14,980 nucleotides of DNA, taken from assembly GCA_964399335.1 (NCBI GenBank), contig CAYNQI010000016.1, positions 1 through 14,980 on the forward strand. The letters run 5' to 3'. Position 1 is the first letter of the stretch. The number at the start of each line of letters is the position of its first letter. Positions 1-14,980 of this stretch are shown here, one piece after another. The notes beneath the pieces are model-generated. The model saw only the letters and a program-made list of their open reading frames with translations. It ran no database searches and was not told the origin of the DNA. The translations under genes were made by a program, and so were the position numbers. This stretch comes from an uncultured Thermoplasmata archaeon. Lineage in GTDB: Archaea > Thermoplasmatota > Thermoplasmata > Halarchaeoplasmatales > Halarchaeoplasmataceae.

Positions 1-1061
1 TGAAAACCAAAGAGAAAGTTGGTATTAAAAGTTACGCTGGATACGTGCCAAGATACAGGATCAAACCAAAAGAGATCGGTGAAGTATGGGGTAAAGATGG
101 AGAAACTATGGGTAAGGGACTCAGGATTAACAGTAAATCGGTTCCTTCACCTGATGAAGATGTGATAACGATAGCAACTCAAGCTGCTAGATGGGCTATG
201 GAAAGAGCAAGAATCAAAGGTATCGATATAGGTGCTATCTATGTGGGCTCAGAATCACATCCATATGCTGTTAAACCAACTGCAACGATAGTTGGAGCAG
301 CTATAGGTGCTACACCTTTGATGACAGCTGCAGATTATGAATTTGCATGTAAAGCCGGTACCGCTGGATTCCAAACTTGCATGGGCTTGGTATCATCAGG
401 GATGATAAAAAACGGAATGGCTATCGGAGCTGACACGTCACAAGGTGCCCCTGGAGATGCTTTAGAATACTCGGCAGCTGCTGGTGGTGCTGCTTATATT
501 ATAGGCACAGAGGACATCCTAGCAGAGATAAAACACACATGTTCCTTTACTACAGATACACCAGATTTCTGGAGAAGAGAGGGACAAAAATACCCCTCGC
601 ACGGAGGAAGATTCACTGGCAAACCTGCCTATTTTAAACATATAACTGAGTGTACAAACAATTTGATGGAAGAATCTGAAACGGTACCAGACGATTATGA
701 TTATGCAGTGTTCCATCAACCTAACGGAAAATTCCCTGTTAAAGTAGCTAAAAAATTAGGATTTTCAAAAGAACAGATCGATCCTGGTTTATTAGTTACA
801 AGGATTGGAAATACTTATTCAGGTGCTGTTCCCTTGGGTTTGGCAGCAACGTTAGATCAAACAGAACCGGGTGATAGAATTTTGGTGACTGCTTATGGAT
901 CTGGTGCTGGTTGTGACAGTTTTGACATTGAAGTCACGGAGAATATAAAAAAGATAAAAAATGATGAAGTACCGACTATCCAAGAAGTAATCTCCGATGA
1001 AGAGTTCATACCGTATTCTATCTATGCTAAATTCCGAAGGAAAATAGAAGGAGGTCATTAA
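1..1061 (+). CDS. hmgS: Archaeal hydroxymethylglutaryl-CoA synthase (5' end clipped by 1 nt at the window edge)
   Basis: Catalytic motifs are intact: [11 protein letters not shown] (Glu, nt 252-254), FACKAG (Cys, nt 348-350) and FHQPN (His, nt 714-716). It also has the archaeal-type [15 protein letters not shown] motif. The frame is open upstream of the GTG at 45 (xTG AAA ACC AAA GAG AAA GTT GGT ATT..., i.e. [M][20 protein letters not shown]), which matches the usual HMGS N-terminus. Confidence 0.95.
1050..1055 (+). promoter_or_regulatory. Shine-Dalgarno site (GGAGGT) for the thiolase-like gene, embedded in the HMGS 3' end
   Basis: GGAGGT lies 7 nt before the ATG at 1063. The HMGS stop is at 1059-1061. 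Confidence 0.75.
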
Positions 1062-1062
1062 A

Positions 1063-2229
1063 ATGAGAGACGTAGCGATAATAGGTATTGGAGAAACACA
1101 AATAGGTGAACTTTGGGACAAGTCACTTAGAGAATTGGGTATAGAAGCAGGTCTAAAGGCAATACGTGACGCTGGTGTTTCTGGAGAAGAAGTTGATATG
1201 CTCTATGTTGGAAATATGTCAGCAGGCAAGTTGATCAATCAAGAACATGTTGCCCCCATGATCGCTGATTATGCAGGTTTAGATGATGTTCCTGCTGTCA
1301 GAATAGAATCCGGTGGTGCCTCAGGAGGGATGGCTTTAGCTGAGGGATATATTTCAGTAGCATCCGGCCTAGATGATATCGTTGTCGTTGGTGGTGCAGA
1401 AAAGATGACCGATGTGAATGATGAGGAAGCAAAAAAGATATTGTCTTCAACTGCAGATCAAGAATGGGAAACAGTGTGTGGGGCTACATTTGATTCATTA
1501 CACGCAATGATGGCCCGTTATCACATGAATAAGTATGGAACCACTAAAGAGCAGCTTGCAGAAGTGATAGTTAAGAACCATTCGAACGCATCTAAAAATC
1601 CAAACGCACAATATCCTAGAGAGATACCTAAGAATTTCGTCATGAATGCTCCCATGGTTTCAGACCCCCTGGGAATGTTTGATTGTGCTCCACTTTCTGA
1701 TGGTGGAGCTGCTGTGGTCTTATGTCCAGCAGAATATGTGGATAGTTATAAAGGAGAACCAGTGAAGATATTAGGAGCCGGTCACGGAGCAGATCATATA
1801 GCTCTTCATGATCGAAGAGAGATAGGGAGTATGAAAGCCACTAGGATAGCTGCTGAGAAGGCCTTCGAACACTCAAAAATATCCCCGAAAGATATAGATC
1901 TTGCAGAAGTTCATGACAACTATTCTATAAGTGAAATCGTAGCAATCGAAGATCTGGGATTCTTCAAAAAAGGAGGAGGGGGACAAGCAACAGAAGATGG
2001 TAGGACAGCTTTGAATTCAGAGGTCTCTATAAACACTTCTGGTGGATTAAAAGCTAAAGGACAACCAGTAGGAGCTGTAGGTATCAACCAAGCTATCGAA
2101 GCTACTATTCAACTTCGAGGTGATGCTGGTGATAGGCAAGTAGAAGATGCAAGATATGGATTAACCCATAATGTAGGTGGGACCGGTGCTAGTGCTGTTG
2201 TTCATATATTTGAGAGGTGGTCTGAATGA
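1063..2229 (+). CDS. Archaeal acetyl-CoA acetyltransferase (thiolase)-family protein with a degenerate active site
   Basis: Thiolase-fold motifs are present: MRDVAIIG, YVGNMSAG, DIVVVGGAEKM, DCAPLSDGGAAVVL, INTSGGLKAKG and THNVGGTG. It sits between HMGS and DUF35. The catalytic positions read ESGGASGG (normally ExxCASG), EVHDNY (normally HDCF/HDAF) and KGQPVG (normally GHP). Confidence 0.9.
   Translation: MRDVAIIGIGETQIGELWDKSLRELGIEAGLKAIRDAGVSGEEVDMLYVGNMSAGKLINQEHVAPMIADYAGLDDVPAVRIESGGASGGMALAEGYISVASGLDDIVVVGGAEKMTDVNDEEAKKILSSTADQEWETVCGATFDSLHAMMARYHMNKYGTTKEQLAEVIVKNHSNASKNPNAQYPREIPKNFVMNAPMVSDPLGMFDCAPLSDGGAAVVLCPAEYVDSYKGEPVKILGAGHGADHIALHDRREIGSMKATRIAAEKAFEHSKISPKDIDLAEVHDNYSISEIVAIEDLGFFKKGGGGQATEDGRTALNSEVSINTSGGLKAKGQPVGAVGINQAIEATIQLRGDAGDRQVEDARYGLTHNVGGTGASAVVHIFERWSE
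2214..2219 (+). promoter_or_regulatory. Shine-Dalgarno site (GAGGTG) for DUF35
   Basis: GAGGTG lies 6 nt before the ATG at 2226. The ATGA start/stop overlap with the thiolase gene suggests translational coupling. Confidence 0.65.
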
Positions 2230-2639
2230 CGACCCCTAGATTCTGGAGAGAGATAGAACAGAGATATCGGGGTATCGGAGTGCAGTGTGAAATTTGTGAT
2301 AGGGTGTATTTCCCACCAAGGGAGATATGTCCTCACTGTCGTAGAGAAAGCTTCGGAAAGATGAATGAACGTGAACTGAGTGGAAAGGGAAAGGTTTTGA
2401 CATACACCGAAGTACATGATCCACATCCGGATTTCAAGATGTTAACTCCATATATAATGGCTATAATTGAAATGGAGGAAGATGTTAGAGTTACGGGACA
2501 AATAGTAGACATAGACTACGAGAAAGTAGAAACTGGTATGGAAGTAAAAGCTACGATGAGAAGGCTTGGTGAAGAAAGCCCGGAAGGTATAATCTACTAC
2601 GGATATAAGTTCACTCCCATAAAAGAGATAAAAGAGTGA
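2226..2639 (+). CDS. DUF35 family Zn-ribbon/OB-fold protein (scaffold subunit of archaeal thiolase/HMGS complexes)
   Basis: MTTPRFWRE N-terminus, a CEIC...YFPPREICPHC zinc ribbon, and an OB-fold segment (GKGKVLTYT...PYIMAIIEMEEDVRVTGQIVD...YGYKF). It is the third gene of the HMGS-thiolase-DUF35 trio. Confidence 0.93.
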   Translation: MTTPRFWREIEQRYRGIGVQCEICDRVYFPPREICPHCRRESFGKMNERELSGKGKVLTYTEVHDPHPDFKMLTPYIMAIIEMEEDVRVTGQIVDIDYEKVETGMEVKATMRRLGEESPEGIIYYGYKFTPIKEIKE

Positions 2640-2719: not shown

Positions 2720-3229
2720 ATGGATGTTTTCAAAGCCATCGAAGAAAGACAAAGTATAAGAAATTACACGGGTAAGGGAATACGAAAGAAAGATATGTTA
2801 AAATTACTTGATGCTGCAAGAAATTCTCCATCTGCTAAGAATCTTCAGCCATGGGAATTAGTCGTTGTAACAAAAGATAGTCTCAAAAAAGAAATGATCG
2901 AAATATTTCATAACCAAGCATTCATTGAAGATGCTGGGGCTATTATTATTGGTCTTACCGAGAATGAAAAATGGGCGGATATAGATCTTGCTATCGCTCT
3001 TGATCATCTATCTTTAGCTGCCACTTCATTAGGTATGGGAACATGTTGGTTAGGTGCATTTAAGTCAGTAAAATTAAGAGAAAGGTTGAACATACCTGAT
3101 AATTTCAATATAAAGGTATGTATGTCTGTTGGATACCCAAGTAATACAGATAAACCTCCTGTGAAAAAAAGTGTTCACGAGCTTGTAAGTTGGAATATGT
3201 ACGGAAATAGAAAAGATATAAGAAAATAG
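2720..3229 (+). CDS. Nitroreductase-family FMN-dependent oxidoreductase
   Basis: RQSIRNY FMN-binding N-terminus, ARNSPSAKNLQPW, and DLAIALDHLSLAATSLGMGTCWLG. At 169 aa it is a typical size. Confidence 0.92.
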   Translation: MDVFKAIEERQSIRNYTGKGIRKKDMLKLLDAARNSPSAKNLQPWELVVVTKDSLKKEMIEIFHNQAFIEDAGAIIIGLTENEKWADIDLAIALDHLSLAATSLGMGTCWLGAFKSVKLRERLNIPDNFNIKVCMSVGYPSNTDKPPVKKSVHELVSWNMYGNRKDIRK

Positions 3230-3252: not shown

Positions 3253-4944
3253 CTAGTATGGTAGACTTTCGTGGTCCTCTAAATATTCCTCTTCAGCCCT
3301 ATCCCGTAATTCTGTTCTTCTTATTTTACCGCTTATTGTTTTTGGAAGTTCTTCGACAAATTCTACCTGTCTTGGATATTTGTAAGGAGCGGTTACCTCT
3401 TTGACGTGCTCTTGTAGTTCTTTTTTAAGTTCATCGCTTGGTTCGTATCCTTCATTCAAAATAATGTAAGCTTTTACTATCTTTCCTCTGATTTCATCGG
3501 GAGCACCTATCACAGCTGGTTCTTGGACTGCAGGATGTTCTTGTAACGCACTTTCTACTTCGAATGGCCCGATCCTGTAACCCGAAGCTTTTATCACGTC
3601 ATCAGACCGTCCAACGAACCAGAAATAACCGTCTTCGTCTTTGTAAGCCTTATCCCCTGTGTAATACCAATCACCTTCAAAAACTCCTGTGGTTTTTTCA
3701 TCATCTTTCCAATATTCCTTAAACAAACCTGGAGGTCTCTCGGGAACTACCTTCAAGCCTATATGACCTTCTTCACCGACGTCTAGAATATTCTGATCAT
3801 CATCTATTATCTCTACTTCATGTCCAGGTGTTGGTTTACCCATCGAACCGGCCTTAACTTCCATGGTAGGATAGTTTGCGACTAGTGCTACAGTTTCAGT
3901 TTGACCATAATAATCATAGATTCTTAGACCTGTATATTCTTCCCATTTGTCAATAACATCAGGATTTAATGGTTCTCCAGCACTAAGACAGTGACGTAAA
4001 GAACTAAGGTCGTAACTTTCTACATCTTCATTGATCATCATTTTATATATCGTAGGTGGGACACAGAAAGTCGTGATACCGTAATCTTGTAATATCTTCA
4101 AAGTTTTCTTTGGATCGAATCTACCTGTGATATTCTGTTGAACGATGGTAGCACCGACTATCCACTGACCGAAAAGCTTACCCCAAACAGCTTTAGCCCA
4201 TCCATTATCTGCGATAGTCCAATTTGTATCTTCTGGGGTTAGATCTTGAACGTATCTTGCTGTAACTGTGTGGCCAATTGGATAAGAATGGGTATGAAGT
4301 ACCATCTTAGGTTTACCAGTAGTTCCAGACGTGAAGTAAATCAGCAATGGGTCTTCACTTTTTGTAGCTTCTATATCATCTTTATTGAGTTCCGGAGAAG
4401 CTTCCTCCATAAGTGTTCTATATTCATCCCAACCATCTTTTTCCTCTTCAGAATTAATCAAAATGAAATTATTTAGAGATTTCATCCCTTCCTTATCTCT
4501 AACCTTATCTATTTTTTCGTGATTTGACCAATCCGTGACTATGGTGTTAGCCTCAGCCCGATTTATTCTATATCTGATGTCTTCAGGTGTAGCAAGATTG
4601 GGCGTAGGTATGGGCACCACTCCGAGCTTGATCATACCCAACATTGCAACATACCACTCGGGAATCCTATGTACTAGGATCATCGCTCTGTCGCCTTTTT
4701 TAATTCCTTTTTCCCTGAGGGCATTAGCAAATTTATTAGATAGGGTTTTAAGTTCCTGGAAGGTGTGCTTATCAGCATTCTCACCACTATTATCTACGGA
4801 GATAAGCGCTGTTTTGTCAGGATATTCTTTTGCTCTTTCATCCACTTCATCAAATGCAAAATTGTAAAATTCTGGAACTTTCCATTTGAACTCTTTTTTG
4901 ACTTTTTCGTAATCATACATATTATGTTCATGTTCTTCGCTCAT
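3253..4944 (-). CDS. AMP-forming acyl-CoA synthetase, medium/short-chain (MACS/ACSM-like)
   Basis: ANL superfamily motifs: YFTSGTTGKPK (P-loop), SAGEPLN, YGQTET, YYTGD, FVGRSDDVIKASGYRIGPFEVESAL and LPKTISGKIRR. The ATG at 4944 is preferred over the in-frame GTG at 4953, whose GTGA resembles an RBS remnant. Confidence 0.93.
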   Translation of the reverse strand: MSEEHEHNMYDYEKVKKEFKWKVPEFYNFAFDEVDERAKEYPDKTALISVDNSGENADKHTFQELKTLSNKFANALREKGIKKGDRAMILVHRIPEWYVAMLGMIKLGVVPIPTPNLATPEDIRYRINRAEANTIVTDWSNHEKIDKVRDKEGMKSLNNFILINSEEEKDGWDEYRTLMEEASPELNKDDIEATKSEDPLLIYFTSGTTGKPKMVLHTHSYPIGHTVTARYVQDLTPEDTNWTIADNGWAKAVWGKLFGQWIVGATIVQQNITGRFDPKKTLKILQDYGITTFCVPPTIYKMMINEDVESYDLSSLRHCLSAGEPLNPDVIDKWEEYTGLRIYDYYGQTETVALVANYPTMEVKAGSMGKPTPGHEVEIIDDDQNILDVGEEGHIGLKVVPERPPGLFKEYWKDDEKTTGVFEGDWYYTGDKAYKDEDGYFWFVGRSDDVIKASGYRIGPFEVESALQEHPAVQEPAVIGAPDEIRGKIVKAYIILNEGYEPSDELKKELQEHVKEVTAPYKYPRQVEFVEELPKTISGKIRRTELRDRAEEEYLEDHESLPY

Positions 4945-5005
4945 ATGAATCACTGTCGAGGGGTATGAACAGCAAAAATAAAGATTTTGCCCTTCAAACC
5001 AAAAT

Positions 5006-5049: not shown

Positions 5050-6390
5050 ATGAGTGAGAGAGTAATCGTTATAGGGAGTGGACCAGGCGGATACAAGAGT
5101 GCAGTCCATGCAGCTAAGAAAGGTTTAGATGTTAAATTGATTGAAAAAAGTGATGATATAGGTGGCGTATGTACTAATCATGGATGTATCCCATCAAAAG
5201 CCCTTTTATCTATTGCAGAGACTATTGATGATATACAAAATTCCAGGAGAAAAGGTATATCTTCGTCTATCGATGATATCGATCTTAATAAAGCCCAGAT
5301 GGTAAAAAACAGGGCAGTAAAAACATCTCAAAAGGGTATCATTAACCAGCTTGAGGAAAATGATATAGAGACAATAAAAGGCGAAGCAAAAATCAAGGAT
5401 AAAAACACAGTTGACGTCGGTGGTGAAGTACATGAAGCAGACTATATCATTATTGCTACTGGTTCTGAACCGATAATACTGCCAGGTTTGGATGTAGATG
5501 AAGAGAACATCTTGACTAGCAGAGGAGTGTTAAAATTAGATGAGATTCCAGAAGATATACTTATCATCGGTGGAGGGTATATCGGAATAGAGCTTGCTTT
5601 CGTACTATCATCTTTTGGAAGTAAAGTGACTATAGTTGAATTGATGGACAATATTTTGCCTAATATGGACCAAGACTTAGCTGCAGAAATTGAAAGTGTT
5701 CTCAAAAGAAAGAGGATTAAGGTCATAACGGGTTCTAAAGTTTCAGAAGTCGAAGGTGATTCACCTTTTGAAGTAAAGATAGAAGGTAAAGAGAACAAGA
5801 CTATCAAAGCAGAAAAAATACTGTGTGCTGTAGGTAGAAAACCAACACCCCCTGAGACTGAATTAGATATTATAGGTCCTCATAACGAAATAATCACAAA
5901 TGATTTTATGGAAACCCCTGTAAAGAACGTATATGCAGTTGGTGATGTTACAGGTAAAATGATGTTAGCTCACGCAGCTTATAAACATGCAGAAATCGCT
6001 GTGAAAAATATAGTCGGGGAAGATACTCCTAAATTTTCACATTACAGTGTTCCTGCTGGGGTATACACTCATCCAGAAGCTGCCAGTATTGGATCAACTG
6101 AGGAAGAAGCTAGAGAAAAATACGAGGATATAAACATCGGTAAATACCCTATTTCAGCAAGCGGTAGGGGATACTCTACTGGTAACAGAACTGGTGTTGC
6201 AAAAGTCATAGCTCACGATGATAAAATTGTAGGTATGCATTTAGTATGCCCGGCTGCAACGGATATTATCATGGAAGGAACAATTGCTATGGAAGGTAAT
6301 ATAGGAGTTGATAAATTATCTGATATTATCCACCCCCATCCCACCTATTCAGAAGCTCTTAAAAAAGCAGCGGAAAAAGCACTACGATAA
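5050..6390 (+). CDS. lpdA: Dihydrolipoamide dehydrogenase (E3 / glycine cleavage L protein)
   Basis: FAD motif GSGPGG, redox disulfide GGVCTNHGCIPSK, NAD motif GGGYIGIE, VYAVGD, and the C-terminal His-Glu pair HPHPTYSE. Confidence 0.93.
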   Translation: MSERVIVIGSGPGGYKSAVHAAKKGLDVKLIEKSDDIGGVCTNHGCIPSKALLSIAETIDDIQNSRRKGISSSIDDIDLNKAQMVKNRAVKTSQKGIINQLEENDIETIKGEAKIKDKNTVDVGGEVHEADYIIIATGSEPIILPGLDVDEENILTSRGVLKLDEIPEDILIIGGGYIGIELAFVLSSFGSKVTIVELMDNILPNMDQDLAAEIESVLKRKRIKVITGSKVSEVEGDSPFEVKIEGKENKTIKAEKILCAVGRKPTPPETELDIIGPHNEIITNDFMETPVKNVYAVGDVTGKMMLAHAAYKHAEIAVKNIVGEDTPKFSHYSVPAGVYTHPEAASIGSTEEEAREKYEDINIGKYPISASGRGYSTGNRTGVAKVIAHDDKIVGMHLVCPAATDIIMEGTIAMEGNIGVDKLSDIIHPHPTYSEALKKAAEKALR

Positions 6391-6447: not shown

Positions 6448-9400
6448 TTAAGCCTTAATTTTACTAAGTTTTATAAGTGCCTGAGACTTATTGAGCATGG
6501 CATCTCTATAATCTCCTTGGATCTCCAAAGCTTTGTCATAGCATTCTAGTGCTTCAGAATAATTTCCACATCTAAAATTAACATTTCCTAAATTATTCCA
6601 TGCAATAGCATACTCTTCGTCAATATTTATCGCATTAATTAAGCATTTTTTAGCTTTTTCCTGTGCACCAACCCTACTATAAGCTGTTCCTAAATTATTC
6701 CAAATAGCCTCGTTATCCCCTTCAAGATCAAGTGCTTTTTTAAACTTTCTTATAGAATCCTCATATTCCCCCATGCTACAACTGTTTATTCCTTTGATAT
6801 AGTAAGGGATTGCTTTCTCTTCAGATACGGGACAGGTTTTACTAATATTTTCATAGTAATTTCCAGAATCTTGATAATTAGAGAATCTTTTTGAAAGTGA
6901 AACTGATTTGGTTTCATAACTCCCAATAGTTTCCTTATACCACGTGGCAGTACCGCTCATGACCATCACTGATCCTAATCCCAATGGCAATATAATCGTA
7001 TATTCAAGATGGGAGATCTGAACAGAATAAAATATCAATGTCAATCCTGCAACGAACAATATACAGATACCTGAAAACCAAAGCATATAATAATGAAATT
7101 TTTTGGGTAAACTATAATCTAAAATCCAAAAAATCCCCAATGCAGTAGCCGTCATCCCAGCACTAGCTAACAATGGAATATTTAAATTGAGGATATACCT
7201 ACTCGTCGGAATAAATGATGAGATTATTATACCTATCAAATATCCCACAAACCCTATGGAAGAATATGAAATAATTTCATCTTTAAATGCATATACAGTT
7301 AATATGCCCAATCCAAAGAATAGACCTATCAAGATCAATCCAAGTTCACCAAAGTAATTAAAATCAGATGTCCTGTAGGTCGTAAAATATATACCTCCAA
7401 AAGCTAAAAGAGATAAACTAGAAACCGGTACTTCGTAATCTTTTGCTTTATACAAAATATTTTTTAAACTATGTTGAATATGAGATTCTACAAAATCAGG
7501 TTCTGGTCTAGATTTTTTTAAAGATGGTTTAGATTTAGAAACAACCGAGGGTTCTGATTTAACTGTTTGAGAAACTCTAGTAGCTTTTGATAAAATCGTT
7601 TTCTCACTAATCGTTTCTTTTTCTCCAACAACTTCGTCTAAAGACTGATCGCAAACACTACAAAATTCGCTATCTTTACTTATATAAGATTTACAGGTTG
7701 GACATCTTATCCAATCATCATCTTTTTTGAAATCTTCTACAGACTTTTCCTCATCTTCAATCTCTGTCTTTAATCCATCAGCATCATATTCCAATCCCTT
7801 TTCTTTAAGATCACTTGTAGATTCTGTTTGATCCGGCTTATCTTCAATTTCTGCTTTTTCTTCGTCATATCGACTTTTCAAAATAGACTCGATTTCCTCA
7901 TTAAGTTTAATATCAAATTCGTCCTCATCCTCTTCTAAATCTATTTCATCGGAAGTTGGTGCAAAATCACCTAAATCATCTTCATCTATTTCATCCCCAG
8001 TGATTTGCTCTTCATCATCCATTAATTCACTTAAATCAAAATCGTCTTCTTCAAGCTCTTCATAATCTTCTTCAAATTCATCAATATCTTGGTCTTCAAG
8101 CTCTTCATCCAACGTTTCTTCTGTATTCAAAGTTTCAGAGGGTTCTTCTTCTACTTCTGAATGATCGTAACTTTCTGCAGGTTCAATATCACTTTCCCCT
8201 AAATCTGATTGACATATAGAACAGGTCTCAGCACTAGCACTTACCATGGCGCCACAACTTGTACATAAATATAATTCCACTTCGTCTTCTTCATATTCCT
8301 TTGAACCATCATCAGTTTGGCCAAAGAATTTTTTTATGACCTCTTCTTGGTCAGTTTCTGCGACGGAAACCTCCTCTTTTTCGATGTCTTTTTTTGCAAA
8401 CTCCATATCGCTTCCGCATATCGAACATCTTTCCTTTTGATCTTTTACAAAAGCTCCACAAGCATCACAGATAGCCAAATTTCCATCTGTATAATCAATA
8501 TGAGATCCATCAACTGTTTCTATTTCTGGGGTCTCTGAAGATAAACTGCCGCAAACAGGACATCTTTCATTTTCATTTCTTAAAAAAGCTCCACACACTG
8601 TACAAACGTCTACCTTACTCTCATCTCTTGAGGTTATATCTTCCCTCTCAGATCCAATTTCCTCTTCTGTCTTTTCAGAAAGACCAAGTGCTTTTTTAAG
8701 CGTATTAACGTCATCATCCATAGAATGGTCTTCAACATCATATGGTTCTAACTCGGTATCGATAGCTTCTTTTGTAAACTCATGATGACAAATAGGACAT
8801 TCTTCTACAGAGTTATTAGATATCCATCCACAATTCCCACAAATTTTTGCATTATCTCCTACATGGAGTCCCTCTGCTGTAGTACTAGTTGATTCCGGTT
8901 CTTTATAAAATTCATCTTCAGATTTTTCTTCTACTTCAAAAGCTTCTACTTCCTCTTTCGAAACATGGGAATCTTCAATATCCTCGTCTTCATACAAAAA
9001 TTCTTCATCAATCTCACTTAACAATTCAGGTTCTATTTCTTGAAGTTCCTCTGTTTCTTTTTCTTCGGATACCTCTTGTTCTAATCCCTCATTTAATTCT
9101 TCAGCTATACTTTCAAATGATTTTTCGGGCTCTATTACTTCTTCCTGCCCTACGTCTAATTCATCTATTACTTCTAGATCTATTTCTTCTTGGACTTCTT
9201 GAACACCCTCTTCGTCTGGTATTTCTGGCTCTATTTCCTCCTCATATTCCTCAGGTATATCTTCTTCTTCAATATCCTCGGAGAAAGTAAATCCACAATT
9301 CGGGCAGTCCGTTGATTTTACACTAACAAAAGCTCCACAATTAGTACATAAGAAAAGTCCATCCTCCTCTTCTTTTTCTTCAGTCTTTTCCTGGATAACT

Positions 9401-9999
9401 TCTTCTGTGATTTCTTGTTCTACTTCCTCTTCTACTTCCTCTTCTATCTCCCCCATACTTGTTCCACAATATTTACAAACCTCAGAATCTGCACTTACAA
9501 AAGAACCGCAGTTAGTGCAAAGATAAAGTGAACCATCTTCTTCTTGAGTTTCATCTAAATCTTCGTCTGCATCATCATTTCCCTCCTCATCGATTTCATC
9601 GTCTATATCCTCCATAATTGCTCCACAATTCGAACAGCGTTTAGATTCTTCCCCGACGAAAGCACCACATTCATCACAAAGATAAAGCCCTCCTTTTTCT
9701 TTAGTTTCCTCAATAGTTTTTACAATATCACTAGCTATAGATTCACCTATGCCTTCTATAGAAGTTATACTCTCAACATCTATATCATCTAAATCTTTAA
9801 TATCGGAATATCCAGCTTTAACAATATTCTTAGCTCTAGAAGAACCAACTCCAGATATTTGTTTTAAAGCATTTAAAACATTGAATTCATCATTATCAAG
9901 GGACTGTCCTGGTAATTCTTGATCACATTTTTTACATTTAACAGAATCCAGAGAATTTACAGTGCCACACTCTTCACATTTTATTTTATTGCTACTCAA
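6448..9999 (-). CDS. Multi-zinc-ribbon / HhH / polytopic membrane / TPR protein of unknown function (1183 aa)
   Basis: Nine CxxC-x10-CxxC motifs, a tandem HhH motif (ISGVGSSRA...IEGIGESIA), long D/E-rich linkers, about 6 hydrophobic helices (aa ~855-1021), and three TPRs plus a cap (e.g. AIAWNNLGNVNFRCGNYSEALECYDKALEI). TTG start with a strong RBS. Confidence 0.9.
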   Translation of the reverse strand: MSSNKIKCEECGTVNSLDSVKCKKCDQELPGQSLDNDEFNVLNALKQISGVGSSRAKNIVKAGYSDIKDLDDIDVESITSIEGIGESIASDIVKTIEETKEKGGLYLCDECGAFVGEESKRCSNCGAIMEDIDDEIDEEGNDDADEDLDETQEEDGSLYLCTNCGSFVSADSEVCKYCGTSMGEIEEEVEEEVEQEITEEVIQEKTEEKEEEDGLFLCTNCGAFVSVKSTDCPNCGFTFSEDIEEEDIPEEYEEEIEPEIPDEEGVQEVQEEIDLEVIDELDVGQEEVIEPEKSFESIAEELNEGLEQEVSEEKETEELQEIEPELLSEIDEEFLYEDEDIEDSHVSKEEVEAFEVEEKSEDEFYKEPESTSTTAEGLHVGDNAKICGNCGWISNNSVEECPICHHEFTKEAIDTELEPYDVEDHSMDDDVNTLKKALGLSEKTEEEIGSEREDITSRDESKVDVCTVCGAFLRNENERCPVCGSLSSETPEIETVDGSHIDYTDGNLAICDACGAFVKDQKERCSICGSDMEFAKKDIEKEEVSVAETDQEEVIKKFFGQTDDGSKEYEEDEVELYLCTSCGAMVSASAETCSICQSDLGESDIEPAESYDHSEVEEEPSETLNTEETLDEELEDQDIDEFEEDYEELEEDDFDLSELMDDEEQITGDEIDEDDLGDFAPTSDEIDLEEDEDEFDIKLNEEIESILKSRYDEEKAEIEDKPDQTESTSDLKEKGLEYDADGLKTEIEDEEKSVEDFKKDDDWIRCPTCKSYISKDSEFCSVCDQSLDEVVGEKETISEKTILSKATRVSQTVKSEPSVVSKSKPSLKKSRPEPDFVESHIQHSLKNILYKAKDYEVPVSSLSLLAFGGIYFTTYRTSDFNYFGELGLILIGLFFGLGILTVYAFKDEIISYSSIGFVGYLIGIIISSFIPTSRYILNLNIPLLASAGMTATALGIFWILDYSLPKKFHYYMLWFSGICILFVAGLTLIFYSVQISHLEYTIILPLGLGSVMVMSGTATWYKETIGSYETKSVSLSKRFSNYQDSGNYYENISKTCPVSEEKAIPYYIKGINSCSMGEYEDSIRKFKKALDLEGDNEAIWNNLGTAYSRVGAQEKAKKCLINAINIDEEYAIAWNNLGNVNFRCGNYSEALECYDKALEIQGDYRDAMLNKSQALIKLSKIKA

Positions 10000-10070: not shown

Positions 10071-13000
10071 TTAACCAACTGTATCACCTCTGTATATTTC
10101 TGTTAGCCTGTCCTCATTATGGTATACGTGCTGAGAATCTGTATCATTATTTTGCATTGATTTGTTTCCTTCTTTTTTACGTCTATATATAAACATCCCG
10201 ACAAACAATCCTATTGTTGATAATACTGGAATGAATATGTCAGAAAATTCTGAGATAGTTGTAACATCAGTGACAGTATCAGATACTGATGAATCCCTAG
10301 TAGAAGTAGCTGTAAGTGTACTTACATCCTCGACTCCAGATTCTGCATTCCCAGGTATCTCAACACCAAGTGTAACATCTATAGATTCTCCCATCTTTAA
10401 TTTCCCTGTATCTGGGTTTCCACTTCCTGTAGAATCCCATTCAGAATCGACATAATCCCAGTTCCCATCTCCACCATAATCAATAGCTATTACATTGCCA
10501 TCTCCATCATAAAGAGTTAAATTAAAGCCTTGAGAGGAAGAAACACTCAACTCAAAACGATCGTTACCCCTACCCAGATTAGTTATGGTATGATCATACA
10601 ACACCTCAGTACCAGCTTCTCCTTCACCTTCTCGATCCGGATCAACCTCCACATCAGCAGGTATTTGGAATAATCCATCGTCTTCAGATACAGCTTCTTC
10701 GTAGTCAGTAGCTGTCACCTCTGCCTGGTACTCACCAACATTTGCTTCTTCATCTAAATCATATTCACCTTCATAGGTCAAAGTACCTTCTGAAGAAGAT
10801 AATGAATCAAGTGGGTACATATCAATATTTTCCCCTATTAGCTCCCCATCAGGATTATATATATCCAAGGTTGCCTCCATAATATTTTGTGTTCCATACG
10901 GATCGGAAACATCAGCTCTAACTGTAACTGTATCACCTGCACTGAAGGTATCAGTCTGTTCACCATCTTTGTAAGTCCGGATATTCTCTAGATCAATATA
11001 TGTATCTGTGTTAAGTTCAATACGGGAATCGAATTCAGATGAATCATAATACAAAGTCAAGTCATTAGTAGAGACACTTACCTCCAACTCAAGACGATTA
11101 CCCTCCGAAAGTGTCCAATCAGTATTAATTGGGAATTCGTACCACCCTTCATCTTCTAAAGAACCTATTGAATGTTGACCTATCCTTTCACCTGATTCAA
11201 GCAGGCTAACCGTTACATCAGGACGTCTCCACCCATCACGATGAGGTTCGATGTATAGATAAACGTTTGAGGTACCTAGAAGTGTAAAATCACCAGCGAG
11301 TTCAGGTGATTGGTACCAAATTTGATCTCCCTGGAATCTATTTTGAACTGTATTATCACCTATTTGATTGTCTAATGTATCATCCTCATGTAGATATAGT
11401 GTTCTCATCACCGTCGGAGGGGGAACGCGAGTTGTTACTGCAGCATCATCAATTATATCATCTTCAGTTGAAGATGTTGCATATAATGCCGTTTCATCTG
11501 TTTCCCCTTCTATATCTGGTGGAACAAATTTTACGAGTGTGAAATCTATTGAATCTAACGCTTCTAAAGATACATCGGGATAGCCACTATCAGTACTATC
11601 CCATGACTGATCAATCCAATCCCAGTTACCTTTCCCCTCTTCATCAAGAGCAACGAGTTCTCCTCCAAAATATAACCCTGTTTCCCATCGGCGGCTTGAT
11701 TCACCTACGCTTAGCTCATAGATATCGTCCATATTCCCTATATTTTCAACAGTAATACCATACTCTACACTAGAATCAGCATCTACTGTTTTGTAATTAT
11801 CAGGGTAAACGAAAACGTCGTATTCTTTGGGTAATAAGAAATAACCAGACCCAATATCAGATATACCCTGTATATCTAATGCAGTGATATCGATCTCATA
11901 TTTACCCCTAGTCACATCCTCAGGGATCTGGAAAGAAGTATAATATGTGGCACTATAAGGAGGATGATTATCATCATCTTCCAAAAAATCCATTTCAACG
12001 TTCTCTAAAAATATTTCACCATCAGGATCCAACACATCCATAGTGATATCAAAAATCACGTCAGCACTCACCGGATGAGAAACGTCAGTCCTTACTTCCA
12101 CAATTTCTCCATAGTCAAAATCACTCCTTTGATTGCCATCTGAATCGTAAGTCCTTACGTCATCAACTTCGACAGTAGTATCTGTTGGTATGTTGATCCT
12201 AGAATCGTATTCATCATTATTATAATAAACTGACAGATGTAATCTACCATCATCCCCAAAAATTTCAGTGTTCATCGATAATGTATCCCCTGCAGATAGA
12301 GTATCTACCATAGGATCAATAGACACCATATACCACCCTTCATCAGAAACTCTGCTGATCTCACTATATCCAACAGTATTCCCTCCACTATCTAAAGATA
12401 TATTGACCCCAGGAGCATGACGGCCTGTAGGATCTGGCTCTAGGTAAAGATGAACGGTCATGTCTGATGTGATGGAAAGATCACCTGCAAATGGTTCGGA
12501 TTCCCATGAGTGTGAATCTGTTCCTCTATTATCTAATAAAACACTGAGTTCATTATTTCCTTCTTCAAGTGATAGAGAGTCTTCTTCTCTAAGATAGAAT
12601 CTTAGATTTTCACTTGATTCAGTAAGGAGTTGATCTTCACCACCTACTATCTCCTCGGAATCTACAGAATTCGTTTCAGGATTATAACTGCTCAGATCAT
12701 AACTATTAGAACCATCTTCGATATCGTTGAAGTGATTCATACGCTGATTGATACCCCGTATACTCTCTTCATCTATTGGAGATGTAACATCCATAGCATT
12801 AGTCCAGTCAGAGCTGACGAAGGACACTCTTGCTTCAGATTCAAGTTCTAAATCGATAGCTGTTTCCAAACTAGTTCGATTGATTGCAGTGTGTATTTCA
12901 TCTATCATGGTCCATTCCCAGTCGTTACCCGATCCTTCATATTCAGTCAGATATGCCGAAGTAACTTCCATATTTCTACCTGTGATGTTAACCATATAAT

Positions 13001-14980
13001 CTGCTCTGATGTCTAACCATGGTGCACTGTAACCCTCAGTTGGGTCAGTTTCGATAAATATCCTCATGAAATCATGACCCGTCCTAACTGGAATTGTTAC
13101 TGGACCGATATACCGACTTACTTCTCTACCCCAATATCTTTCGGGAATTTTGGGGTCTTCGGGGATAGTAGTGTTCAACCATTTATCGGGACCATAGGGC
13201 CAATCAGCAACTCCATCACCATCTACATCTGGAAGAAGTTCACCATCAACCTCCACGAACATCTCGGAATCTGGAGTTCCATCGTTTGTAAAATCATTTG
13301 GATATGGGTCGTATATATCTGGTATTCCATCACCATCGGAATCTTTCAATTCAGGAGGCCTAGACCGATGATATGGGATGTCCTCACCACCCATCATGTT
13401 ACCTTCAACTCCCACCTTAAACAAAGTTTCATCGTGTGAATACATGCTGTGTCTTCTGATATCTATATTTGGATTCCAGGTATCATGGGGAGTCAAATCG
13501 TCTAATGGATCGGTTCTATAAGCATATTCATCCCAGAATGCAAATGCTCCATCAACACGAGGTTCTTCAGGGATCTCATTTATATGTTTATTTTCCATTA
13601 ATGGAGGGAAAATGGTAGATAATCCGTCTCTACAAAGGATATCGGCCAATCTTAGTCCAATAGGTTCTCTAGAAGTTGCTTCATCATTAATATACGCTGC
13701 TACGATGAACTCTCGAGGTTTAGGAGTTAATTCTAGATCCAATTCGATTGTAGCATTATTCTCAAAGTTTTCATATACCGCAATTGGTTCTCCGATAAAT
13801 TCGCCATTAGTGTAATTTTGCATATCATAAATGAATACACTATCGATGTATTCTGAAGAATAGTCGTTATATTCTAAAACAATTGATTCCATTATTGCAT
13901 CTTCAGATATAGAAATCGATTCAAAAGAAAATAAAGGTTCTAGTTCTCCAGATTCAACTACTTTCGGTCCAAATAATTCTGTAGAGGTCGCAATAGAATC
14001 TAGACCCTCCCATACTTTTCCAGCAGTGATGTCCCACCCACGGGGACTTTTTGAATGGATTACCATTGAAGGTTGTTTATCTTCTGCAAGACTACCTATC
14101 CAAAATCTTGCTTCCAACTCACTTCCTTCCGATATAGCTTGACCACCTCCAGAATTCCGGAATCCATTCCAATCATCAGATCCACGACTTTCATTGAATC
14201 TTTGAAGCGTAGTTCCTTCGATATTTTCACCCCATCCATATACTTCAAAAAGGTAATCTGCCTTTATATCTCCGATTTCATACCCATAATCTTCCACATC
14301 GATGAAGAAACGCACTGAATGCACACCCTCATCGATTTCAAACAATGTACCATTAGTTCGTAAATATAGATACATATATCCATCAGATTCCTTTAATTTG
14401 TATTCTCTAATATCTAAACTTTTGTCTTCTAATTCATCATTCTCTGGATCGTAATAAGCACGAACAGCGTGCCAATCATCAAAGTCACCATCTATTTCAA
14501 CATCTATTTCAACAGGTACGTAAAGAAGATTTAACATTATTGGTATAGTTAAAAGAAAAATCATTATGACCACAGTCCCTAATCCTTTTTTAAACCAAGA
14601 TGGAGGCATACCACGATGAGGTAAGCTACCTCCTTCACCAAGATCCATTCTATGTGATGCAAGGGTGTCTTTAATGAAACCCTCATCATCATTTGGTAAA
14701 CCTCCTCCAACTAGACCATTTACCAGGCCATCTTCAGCAGGTAAACTGTTTTTCTCTTCGTCTTTTATAAAATCTGAATATACATCTTCTTCACCGGTCA
14801 TCCCAACAATTCTATCAACTAATCCATCTTCATCCGGTATAGATTGGCTCTCTAAAACAGTATCAATAGTGCCATCAGTTGCAGTTTCTTTAAACACAAC
14901 GTCCCCATTGTTTTTGTCTAATCCATTTACTAATCCGTTTATTTTTCCATTAACTTCACCGTTGATTTTTCCGTTAGTCA
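10071..14980 (-). CDS. Large acidic cell-surface glycoprotein-like protein, 5' partial (>1635 aa)
   Basis: The frame stays open from the GTG at 14897 to the window edge (...TNGKINGEVNGKINGLVNGLDKNNGDVVFKE). It has a TM helix near 14520-14586, beta-sandwich-type extracellular repeats, DxDGDG loops, about nine extracellular NxS/T sequons, and a C-terminal SEF-TM-RRKK segment. Confidence 0.88.
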   Translation of the reverse strand, partial: TNGKINGEVNGKINGLVNGLDKNNGDVVFKETATDGTIDTVLESQSIPDEDGLVDRIVGMTGEEDVYSDFIKDEEKNSLPAEDGLVNGLVGGGLPNDDEGFIKDTLASHRMDLGEGGSLPHRGMPPSWFKKGLGTVVIMIFLLTIPIMLNLLYVPVEIDVEIDGDFDDWHAVRAYYDPENDELEDKSLDIREYKLKESDGYMYLYLRTNGTLFEIDEGVHSVRFFIDVEDYGYEIGDIKADYLFEVYGWGENIEGTTLQRFNESRGSDDWNGFRNSGGGQAISEGSELEARFWIGSLAEDKQPSMVIHSKSPRGWDITAGKVWEGLDSIATSTELFGPKVVESGELEPLFSFESISISEDAIMESIVLEYNDYSSEYIDSVFIYDMQNYTNGEFIGEPIAVYENFENNATIELDLELTPKPREFIVAAYINDEATSREPIGLRLADILCRDGLSTIFPPLMENKHINEIPEEPRVDGAFAFWDEYAYRTDPLDDLTPHDTWNPNIDIRRHSMYSHDETLFKVGVEGNMMGGEDIPYHRSRPPELKDSDGDGIPDIYDPYPNDFTNDGTPDSEMFVEVDGELLPDVDGDGVADWPYGPDKWLNTTIPEDPKIPERYWGREVSRYIGPVTIPVRTGHDFMRIFIETDPTEGYSAPWLDIRADYMVNITGRNMEVTSAYLTEYEGSGNDWEWTMIDEIHTAINRTSLETAIDLELESEARVSFVSSDWTNAMDVTSPIDEESIRGINQRMNHFNDIEDGSNSYDLSSYNPETNSVDSEEIVGGEDQLLTESSENLRFYLREEDSLSLEEGNNELSVLLDNRGTDSHSWESEPFAGDLSITSDMTVHLYLEPDPTGRHAPGVNISLDSGGNTVGYSEISRVSDEGWYMVSIDPMVDTLSAGDTLSMNTEIFGDDGRLHLSVYYNNDEYDSRINIPTDTTVEVDDVRTYDSDGNQRSDFDYGEIVEVRTDVSHPVSADVIFDITMDVLDPDGEIFLENVEMDFLEDDDNHPPYSATYYTSFQIPEDVTRGKYEIDITALDIQGISDIGSGYFLLPKEYDVFVYPDNYKTVDADSSVEYGITVENIGNMDDIYELSVGESSRRWETGLYFGGELVALDEEGKGNWDWIDQSWDSTDSGYPDVSLEALDSIDFTLVKFVPPDIEGETDETALYATSSTEDDIIDDAAVTTRVPPPTVMRTLYLHEDDTLDNQIGDNTVQNRFQGDQIWYQSPELAGDFTLLGTSNVYLYIEPHRDGWRRPDVTVSLLESGERIGQHSIGSLEDEGWYEFPINTDWTLSEGNRLELEVSVSTNDLTLYYDSSEFDSRIELNTDTYIDLENIRTYKDGEQTDTFSAGDTVTVRADVSDPYGTQNIMEATLDIYNPDGELIGENIDMYPLDSLSSSEGTLTYEGEYDLDEEANVGEYQAEVTATDYEEAVSEDDGLFQIPADVEVDPDREGEGEAGTEVLYDHTITNLGRGNDRFELSVSSSQGFNLTLYDGDGNVIAIDYGGDGNWDYVDSEWDSTGSGNPDTGKLKMGESIDVTLGVEIPGNAESGVEDVSTLTATSTRDSSVSDTVTDVTTISEFSDIFIPVLSTIGLFVGMFIYRRKKEGNKSMQNNDTDSQHVYHNEDRLTEIYRGDTVG
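10173..10253 (-). other. PEF-CTERM-like sorting/anchor segment (ISEFSDIFIPVLSTIGLFVGMFIYRRKK)
   Basis: Tripartite layout of motif, hydrophobic helix and basic cluster, as in archaeosortase C substrates, but with SEF in place of PEF. Confidence 0.65.
10254..12611 (-). repeat. Tandem duplication of a ~390-400 aa three-domain module (copy 1 ~12611-11415, copy 2 ~11414-10254)
   Basis: Paired motifs: FAGDLSITSDMTVHLYLEP / LAGDFTLLGTSNVYLYIEP; DEGWY / DEGWY; YDSRINIPTD / FDSRIELNTD; VRTY / IRTY; DPDGE / NPDGE; GKYEI / GEYQA; GNWDWIDQSWDSTDSGYPD / GNWDYVDSEWDSTGSGNPD. Confidence 0.85.
13203..13343 (-). other. Ca2+-binding-type loops (TSP3-like DSDGDGIPDIYDPYPND...DGTPD and DVDGDGVAD)
   Basis: Two DxDGDG motifs with the DGIPD..DP.P pattern characteristic of thrombospondin type-3-like repeats. 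Confidence 0.7.
14922..14978 (-). repeat. Tetrapeptide xxNG repeat (TNG-KING-EVNG-KING-LVNG) with 12/24-nt DNA periodicity
   Basis: On the plus strand, ccgtttatttttccatta (14935-14952) and ccgttgatttttccgtta (14959-14976) match at 16 of 18 nt, 24 nt apart. The repeat continues off the window. Confidence 0.75.

Follow-up and report, generated by a model that had tools for sequence, protein, structure and literature searches.

A probable pseudo-thiolase partner of HMG-CoA synthase, devoid of thiolase catalytic residues, in a salt-lake Thermoplasmata archaeon

The operon and its thiolase-like protein

The window, i.e., the whole stretch of 14,980 nucleotides analyzed here, opens with three tightly packed genes on the + strand, which encode an HMG-CoA synthase (HMGS), a thiolase-fold protein, and a DUF35 protein. 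The archaeal-type HMGS (3..1061, +), whose 5' end is cut by the contig start, is the sole HMGS-like gene of the bin. It matches chain 6esq_I (E 3.1e-142), scores 548 bits on NF003274 (cut-off 244), and keeps an intact E-C-H-N tetrad, with GSESHP, EFACKAG, VFHQPNG, and GNTYSG all found. The first 17 residues of the truncated HMGS (window 1-53) recur without change where contig C209 ends (G000 C209:1575-1625), and the two contigs probably join at this overlap. The second gene (1063..2229, +) encodes a Cys-less SCP2/archaeal-type thiolase-like protein of 388 aa with Thiolase_N and Thiolase_C_1 domains, which matches 6esq_A, the thiolase of Methanothermococcus thermolithotrophicus, over its full length (E 1.8e-109). 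It scores 540.1 bits on the NCBIfam equivalog NF053570 (acetyl-CoA acetyltransferase), under the cut-off of 600, and the sole NCBIfam model that it passes is the subfamily NF004720, 'thiolase domain-containing protein'. The third gene (2226..2639, +) overlaps the stop codon of the second by 4 bases and encodes a DUF35 protein made of a zinc ribbon and an OB fold (zf-ChsH2 and OB_ChsH2_C), with the CxxC...CxxC of the ribbon intact and a match to 6esq_E (E 1.1e-39).

The chains matched by these proteins are those of the M. thermolithotrophicus thiolase/HMGCS/DUF35 complex, the structure of which was reportedly solved in 2018 (PNAS 115:3380; PDB 6ESQ/6ET9). Judged from sequence, each of the three operon proteins is the ortholog of one chain of this complex. 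The HMGS-thiolase-DUF35 arrangement is also found in 26 relatives of the class and in about 60 relatives of the phylum.

Past the operon, a small nitroreductase-family protein (2720-3229, +) and a dihydrolipoyl dehydrogenase (5050-6390, +; TIGR01350, 463 bits, above the cut-off) flank a gene for an AMP-forming short-chain acyl-CoA synthetase (3253-4953, -), whose scores with the acetate-CoA ligase and MbcS models (~530-540 bits) fall short of the cut-offs. The rest of the window encodes a 1183-aa protein (6448-9999, -) with an N-terminal helix-hairpin-helix, several double zinc ribbons, and C-terminal TPR repeats, followed by a protein of at least 1608 aa (10071-14978, -) that runs off the window end, has weak matches to the Wzt_C and MG2 domains, and is probably a large surface protein.

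Thiolase chemistry needs a nucleophilic Cys, the acid/base Cys of the HDCF motif, and the His of the GHP motif. In a locally gap-free alignment to 6esq_A, G85 of the thiolase-like protein (codon GGT, 1315..1317, +; context R-I-E-S-G-G-A-S-G-G) aligns with the ACASG Cys, N286 with the HDCF Cys, and Q334 (codon CAA, 2062..2064, +; context SGGLKAKGQP) with the His of the GH motif. The His and Asp of the HDCF motif are kept, in H284-D-N286-Y (CAT GAC AAC TAT, 1912..1923, +). The AlphaFold model of the protein, built on an alignment of 89 sequences, has a mean pLDDT of 97 and superposes on 6esq_A/6et9_C with a TM of 0.97 and an rmsd of 1.2-1.3 A, at 46% identity. Hence, the fold is complete and the residue alignment is not in doubt. 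A preliminary description of this locus had named the same three residues, with coordinates that proved exact when checked against the sequence, and was right in placing G85 and Q334 one base away from the canonical codon; N286 (AAC) is two bases away from TGC. Its view of a full-length and uninterrupted fold agrees with the open reading frame and the model, and the HNxGG and SGGLKAKG loops that it described as retained can be read in THNVGGTG (368-375) and in the sequence preceding Q334.

One might think that the protein is still the acetoacetyl-CoA thiolase of the pathway, working through another nucleophile or with the cysteine of HMGS, because its fold, its CoA-site loops, and its operon are fully retained, and because some relatives have a Cys two positions past the lost one (GACG). 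Yet, the protein of the window lacks Cys at both 85 and 87, and not one but three catalytic residues are gone, when a single mutation of the His of HDxF is enough to kill the activity of the archaeal complex (PMC12960953). We searched for a compensating Cys by comparing 121 family members with canonical relatives and found none. Residue 139, a Cys in the window protein, is F in 114 of the 121 members; C208 is equally conserved among canonical thiolases; and C221 is at the end of a strand in the AlphaFold model (E213-222), where it seems to be away from the active site, and also aligns with a Cys of 6esq_A. A substitute Cys nucleophile was thus rejected, since each of the three candidates either is not conserved among family members or is just as common in canonical enzymes.

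Conservation of the loss and selection on the gene

The nucleophilic Cys is absent from 120 of the 120 nearest cluster representatives (63-94% identity), which come from MAGs named Saliniplasma, Natronoplasma, Thermoplasmata, and Methanomassiliicoccales. In these proteins position 85 is G, S, N, D, or A, position 334 is Q, R, N, D, or Y, and the equivalent of the HDCF motif is almost always HDN[YF]. Residue 286 is N in 114 of the 121 family members, where residue 334 is mostly Q (79), R (25), or N (15). The canonical relatives with the full set of catalytic residues (55 proteins) provide a measure of how specific these changes are: among the sites that are at least 85% conserved in this set, the only ones that differ are C85, C286, and H334, together with P144, F287, G319, and T339. 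The alignment of orthologs called for by the preliminary description thus upholds the lineage-wide loss, but not the uniformity of G, N, and Q themselves, which vary between lineages. A Cys-less subgroup that includes Methanomassiliicoccales MAGs (P0086-P0088, P0100, P0101, P0104, P0109, P0112, P0115, P0116, P0120, and P0122) reads G-A-C-G, with a Cys two positions past the lost nucleophile, at a place normally occupied by Ser.

These results could in principle be caused by a sequencing or assembly error, or by a gene heading for loss. The substitutions at G85 and Q334 are only one base away from the canonical codons, and the bin is fragmented (212 contigs). However, the frame is uninterrupted, its model is of high confidence, selection on the gene is strong (see below), and equivalent losses are found in the 120 cluster representatives. 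Since these come from independent assemblies, error is excluded, in line with the initial remark that independent errors landing on separate catalytic sites would be unlikely. Taken together, we give artefact or pseudogene decay a negligible probability.

The loss is widespread beyond the closest relatives. Of the 28 operons found in the class sample, which covers 30 genomes, 26 are Cys-less. Among the 133 full-length 50%-cluster representatives nearest to the query, ~40% are Cys-less, with many residue combinations. Across Cys-less lineages one finds G, S, D, N, E, or T at position 85, N, S, A, V, or D at 286, and Q, R, N, D, Y, or H at 334. The Cys state changes at least 16 times on a FastTree phylogeny of the 50%-cluster representatives, at least 7 changes being forced by well-supported branches, and at least 5 times on the HMGS tree of the Thermoplasmatota sample. 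By these trees the Cys was lost repeatedly, with at least 5 losses within the phylum and 7-16 over the whole family. The protein of the window is placed in an all-Cys-less clade of 18 rows (support 98).

One class relative (G020) has two tripartite operons, L046 (G020:C65:15500-19800) and L011 (G020:C4). The first includes a live HMGS and a Cys-less thiolase, and the second a Cys-bearing thiolase, an HMGS-like gene (27% identity) with the tetrad T/S/Q/D, and a DUF35 gene. Judged by residues, each of the two complexes looks half dead, the one complementary to the other.

The thiolase-like gene is under strong purifying selection, the same as HMGS. Relative to a genome of the same genus (G001), dN/dS is 0.032 for the thiolase-like gene, a check that the preliminary description had proposed, 0.031 for HMGS, and 0.047 for DUF35. 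Among 57 Thermoplasmatota operons, divergence relative to the operon's own HMGS is 1.28 for Cys-less and 1.06 for Cys-bearing proteins, although the pairs are not independent. Cys-less forms thus evolve ~20% faster than Cys forms relative to HMGS, and both kinds evolve slower than DUF35. Such a modest relaxation is expected if just the catalytic constraints went.

Classical thiolases outside the operon

If the operon thiolase lacks activity, acetoacetyl-CoA would have to be made elsewhere. The search for a second, canonical thiolase, also suggested at the outset, failed in the bin itself and succeeded in its genus. The bin, which is 80% complete, revealed only the gene of the window in searches with Pfam PF00108 and PF22691, at the protein and DNA levels, and by tblastn. 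It also lacks HMG-CoA reductase, hbd, and the epimerase, the latter two of which flank the thiolase of a congener. As a consequence, the absence of a classical thiolase from the bin is uninformative and reads as incompleteness of the bin. All four congeners have a classical thiolase (PF00108, E about 1e-79 to 1e-81), and in all four it adjoins hbd. In G001, it is a protein of 438 aa with NKVCASG, NEAF, GHPIG, and CIGGG, encoded directly beside the 3-hydroxyacyl-CoA dehydrogenase. In G011, the thiolase-hbd pair is 2.3 kb downstream of the operon, past a divergent acyl-CoA synthetase gene that also follows just past the operon in the window (3253-4953, -). Of the four congeners, three have HMG-CoA reductase, as do 24 of all 30 genomes searched, own bin included; the presence of this enzyme in congeners indicates that the pathway is used.

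The classical thiolases of the genus and of several family relatives are longer (434-464 aa) than the usual form found in others (~393-418 aa). They carry an insertion of ~45 aa after about residue 40 (L033:1151-2467 (-); homologs in G002-G004, G006, G010, G011, G013, and G015), which splits the Pfam Thiolase_N match into 2-42 and 38-259.

We analyzed the co-occurrence of the two thiolases in 80 Thermoplasmatota genomes with a completeness of at least 90%, to which the own bin was added, taking as classical those with a PF00108 match at E<=1e-50. A Cys-less operon thiolase occurs in 43 genomes, every one of which has, in addition, a classical thiolase whose catalytic motifs are intact. A Cys-bearing operon thiolase was found in 19 genomes, of which 13 are devoid of classical thiolase; conversely, all 13 genomes without classical thiolase keep the Cys in the operon. 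In the class sample, the two canonical operons (G018 and G021) belong to genomes where no classical thiolase was detected. The six phylum-sample genomes with both a Cys-bearing operon thiolase and a classical thiolase fit a possible order of events in which the classical thiolase is gained and the operon chemistry is subsequently lost, on a tree that is unrooted. Independent contrasts on the HMGS tree number only 3-5, which prevents the sign test from reaching significance (it is not significant); in these contrasts the traits are opposite or show no difference, and never go in the same direction. Nevertheless, the Cys-less form was never found alone (0 of the 43 sampled genomes lack a classical thiolase). 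Together with the missing residues, this makes it very unlikely that the operon protein remains the acetoacetyl-CoA thiolase of the pathway.

Role of the thiolase-like subunit

Archaeal HMGS is said, in a second-hand account of the 2018 structure, to depend on the thiolase for CoA binding. Our results suggest that the protein of the window is probably a pseudo-thiolase that serves HMGS as a scaffold and CoA-site subunit, while a classical thiolase makes acetoacetyl-CoA. As all three catalytic residues are lost, the subunit should be unable to form the acetyl-enzyme or to condense acetyl-CoA. It may have been kept in the operon since HMGS still requires a partner, as a structural component of the DUF35-bridged assembly and as part of the CoA-binding chamber at the HMGS/thiolase interface. 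Acetoacetyl-CoA would come from the separate classical (AtoB/PhaA-type) thiolase encoded beside 3-hydroxybutyryl-CoA dehydrogenase, and would reach HMGS as a free intermediate. We thus infer that the three proteins still form a complex, in which the thiolase-like subunit is without activity and helps HMGS to bind CoA. The retention of H284, D285, and the SGGLKAxG and HNxGG loops implies that the ligand pocket probably persists.

The likeness to the M. thermolithotrophicus complex is close, including three orthologous adjacent genes, a thiolase model of almost identical fold, and intact HMGS tetrad and DUF35 zinc ribbon. The difference lies in the thiolase subunit, where the nucleophile, the Cys of HDCF, and the His of GHP are all missing; with these residues lost, it should be unable to carry out the channelled two-step reaction from acetyl-CoA by which that complex is defined. 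Known bacterial complexes provide the inverse case. PhlABC (5M3K), MucABC (9VBO), and PfACAT/HMGS-DUF35 are still dodecameric and still have the CoA chamber at the interface, although their HMGS-like subunit is dead (Liao et al. 2026, PMC12960953). This precedent leads us to read the present protein as the mirror case, a pseudo-thiolase. Like those complexes, the one encoded here is tripartite, with one thiolase-superfamily subunit proposed to be dead and to act as structural partner, but in the bacterial complexes the ACAT keeps its Cys and the HMGS-like subunit is inactive, whereas here HMGS would be live and the ACAT dead, as read from their residues. Furthermore, the bacterial complexes left primary metabolism, whereas the HMGS of the window is the only one of a lineage that needs mevalonate. 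Membership in the PhlC/MucB group of Friedel-Crafts C-acyltransferases, which retain Cys88/87, have lost HDxF, and have an HMGS-like partner without the E-C-H-N tetrad (PMC12960953), was rejected: the Cys is missing here, the HD of the motif is kept, and the tetrad of the partner HMGS is intact.

The preliminary description had left two options, a pseudo-enzyme serving HMGS as scaffold or CoA-site partner, and a thiolase fold with new chemistry. We favor the former given the lineage-wide loss, the varied residues, the operon, the selection, and the presence of a classical thiolase. The latter option would have the pocket of H284, D285, N286, and Q334 run a Cys-independent reaction on CoA thioesters (aldol/retro-aldol, decarboxylation, or hydrolysis) linked to HMGS. 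Cys-less enzymes of the thiolase fold do exist, such as Ltp2, the Sal aldolases, and TbSLP, which has weak malonyl-CoA decarboxylase activity (PMC12329534). The very low dN/dS and the strong conservation of N286 and H284 in the close family point the same way, and the conservation of N286 could be a sign of a retained chemical role. Yet, residues 85, 286, and 334 differ between Cys-less lineages of many origins, which is unexpected for one new active site; such variation fits a lost function rather than a newly fixed one. The gene also always has as neighbors an HMGS whose catalytic residues are intact and a DUF35 that stands alone. Finally, acyl-CoA carboxyltransferase was found in none of the five genomes of the genus, so that malonyl-CoA is unlikely to be available, and a malonyl-CoA-dependent route (NphT7-like or decarboxylase) was rejected on these grounds. 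All in all, we regard a new chemistry as unlikely.

The aldolases deserve closer comparison, because the preliminary description had drawn an analogy with Ltp2. Ltp2-ChsH2(DUF35) (6OK1) and Sal-Shy(DUF35) resemble the present system by an SCP2-thiolase fold without nucleophilic Cys and by a DUF35 partner. In these aldolases the catalytic Tyr opens the YDHF or YDCY motif and acts with a second Tyr (Ltp2) or with the motif Cys (Sal) (PMC12329534). The analogy did not survive the comparison of motifs, since the first-position Tyr is absent from H284-D-N-Y, whose fourth position alternates between Y and F in the family, and membership among steroid side-chain aldolases was rejected. Moreover, the DUF35 of Ltp2 and Sal is within a hydratase, whereas here it stands alone and is orthologous to 6esq_E, and the match to their fold is weaker (TM 0.85-0.87, 26% identity). 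Another archaeal SCP2-type thiolase-like protein, ST0096 of Sulfolobus tokodaii (PDB 4YZO; E 1.3e-66, TM 0.85-0.97), is also Cys-less, with Ser at this position. Unlike the window protein, it keeps the GHP His and has HDM, and proteins with its signature type (S/HDM/GHP) form a separate Cys-less clade of 12 rows (support 100). We found no reported function for ST0096 in the literature searched.

A variant of these ideas, which we consider rather unlikely, is that the H284/N286/Q334 site binds free acetoacetyl-CoA, which HMGS then receives by way of the shared CoA chamber, or that this site catalyzes a new reaction of a CoA thioester, the complex having been repeatedly re-engineered once a classical thiolase was acquired. 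As a pseudo-thiolase partner of HMGS, the Cys-less operon thiolase is a variant of a known complex, and one that is apparently undescribed, since we found no description of Cys-less thiolases in archaeal HMGS operons in the literature searched.

The unfavorable first step of isoprenoid-lipid synthesis is described as being overcome, in nearly all archaea, by the thiolase/HMGCS/DUF35 complex. Going by catalytic residues, the thiolase half would be unable to work in 43 of 62 operons, i.e., in most sampled Thermoplasmatota. Thermodynamic coupling as described would then be unable to operate in these Cys-less lineages, and HMGS should draw some second, non-catalytic benefit from the subunit. This matters for pathway reconstruction, because Cys-less proteins are named 'thiolase domain-containing protein' at NCBI but acetyl-CoA C-acetyltransferase at JGI, an automatic annotation that would be wrong for this purpose. 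Overall, these operons would be the converse of the bacterial complexes with a dead HMGS reported in 2026, and the repeated independent losses, which may follow the appearance of a classical thiolase, offer a natural series for the study of how pseudoenzymes originate inside obligate complexes.
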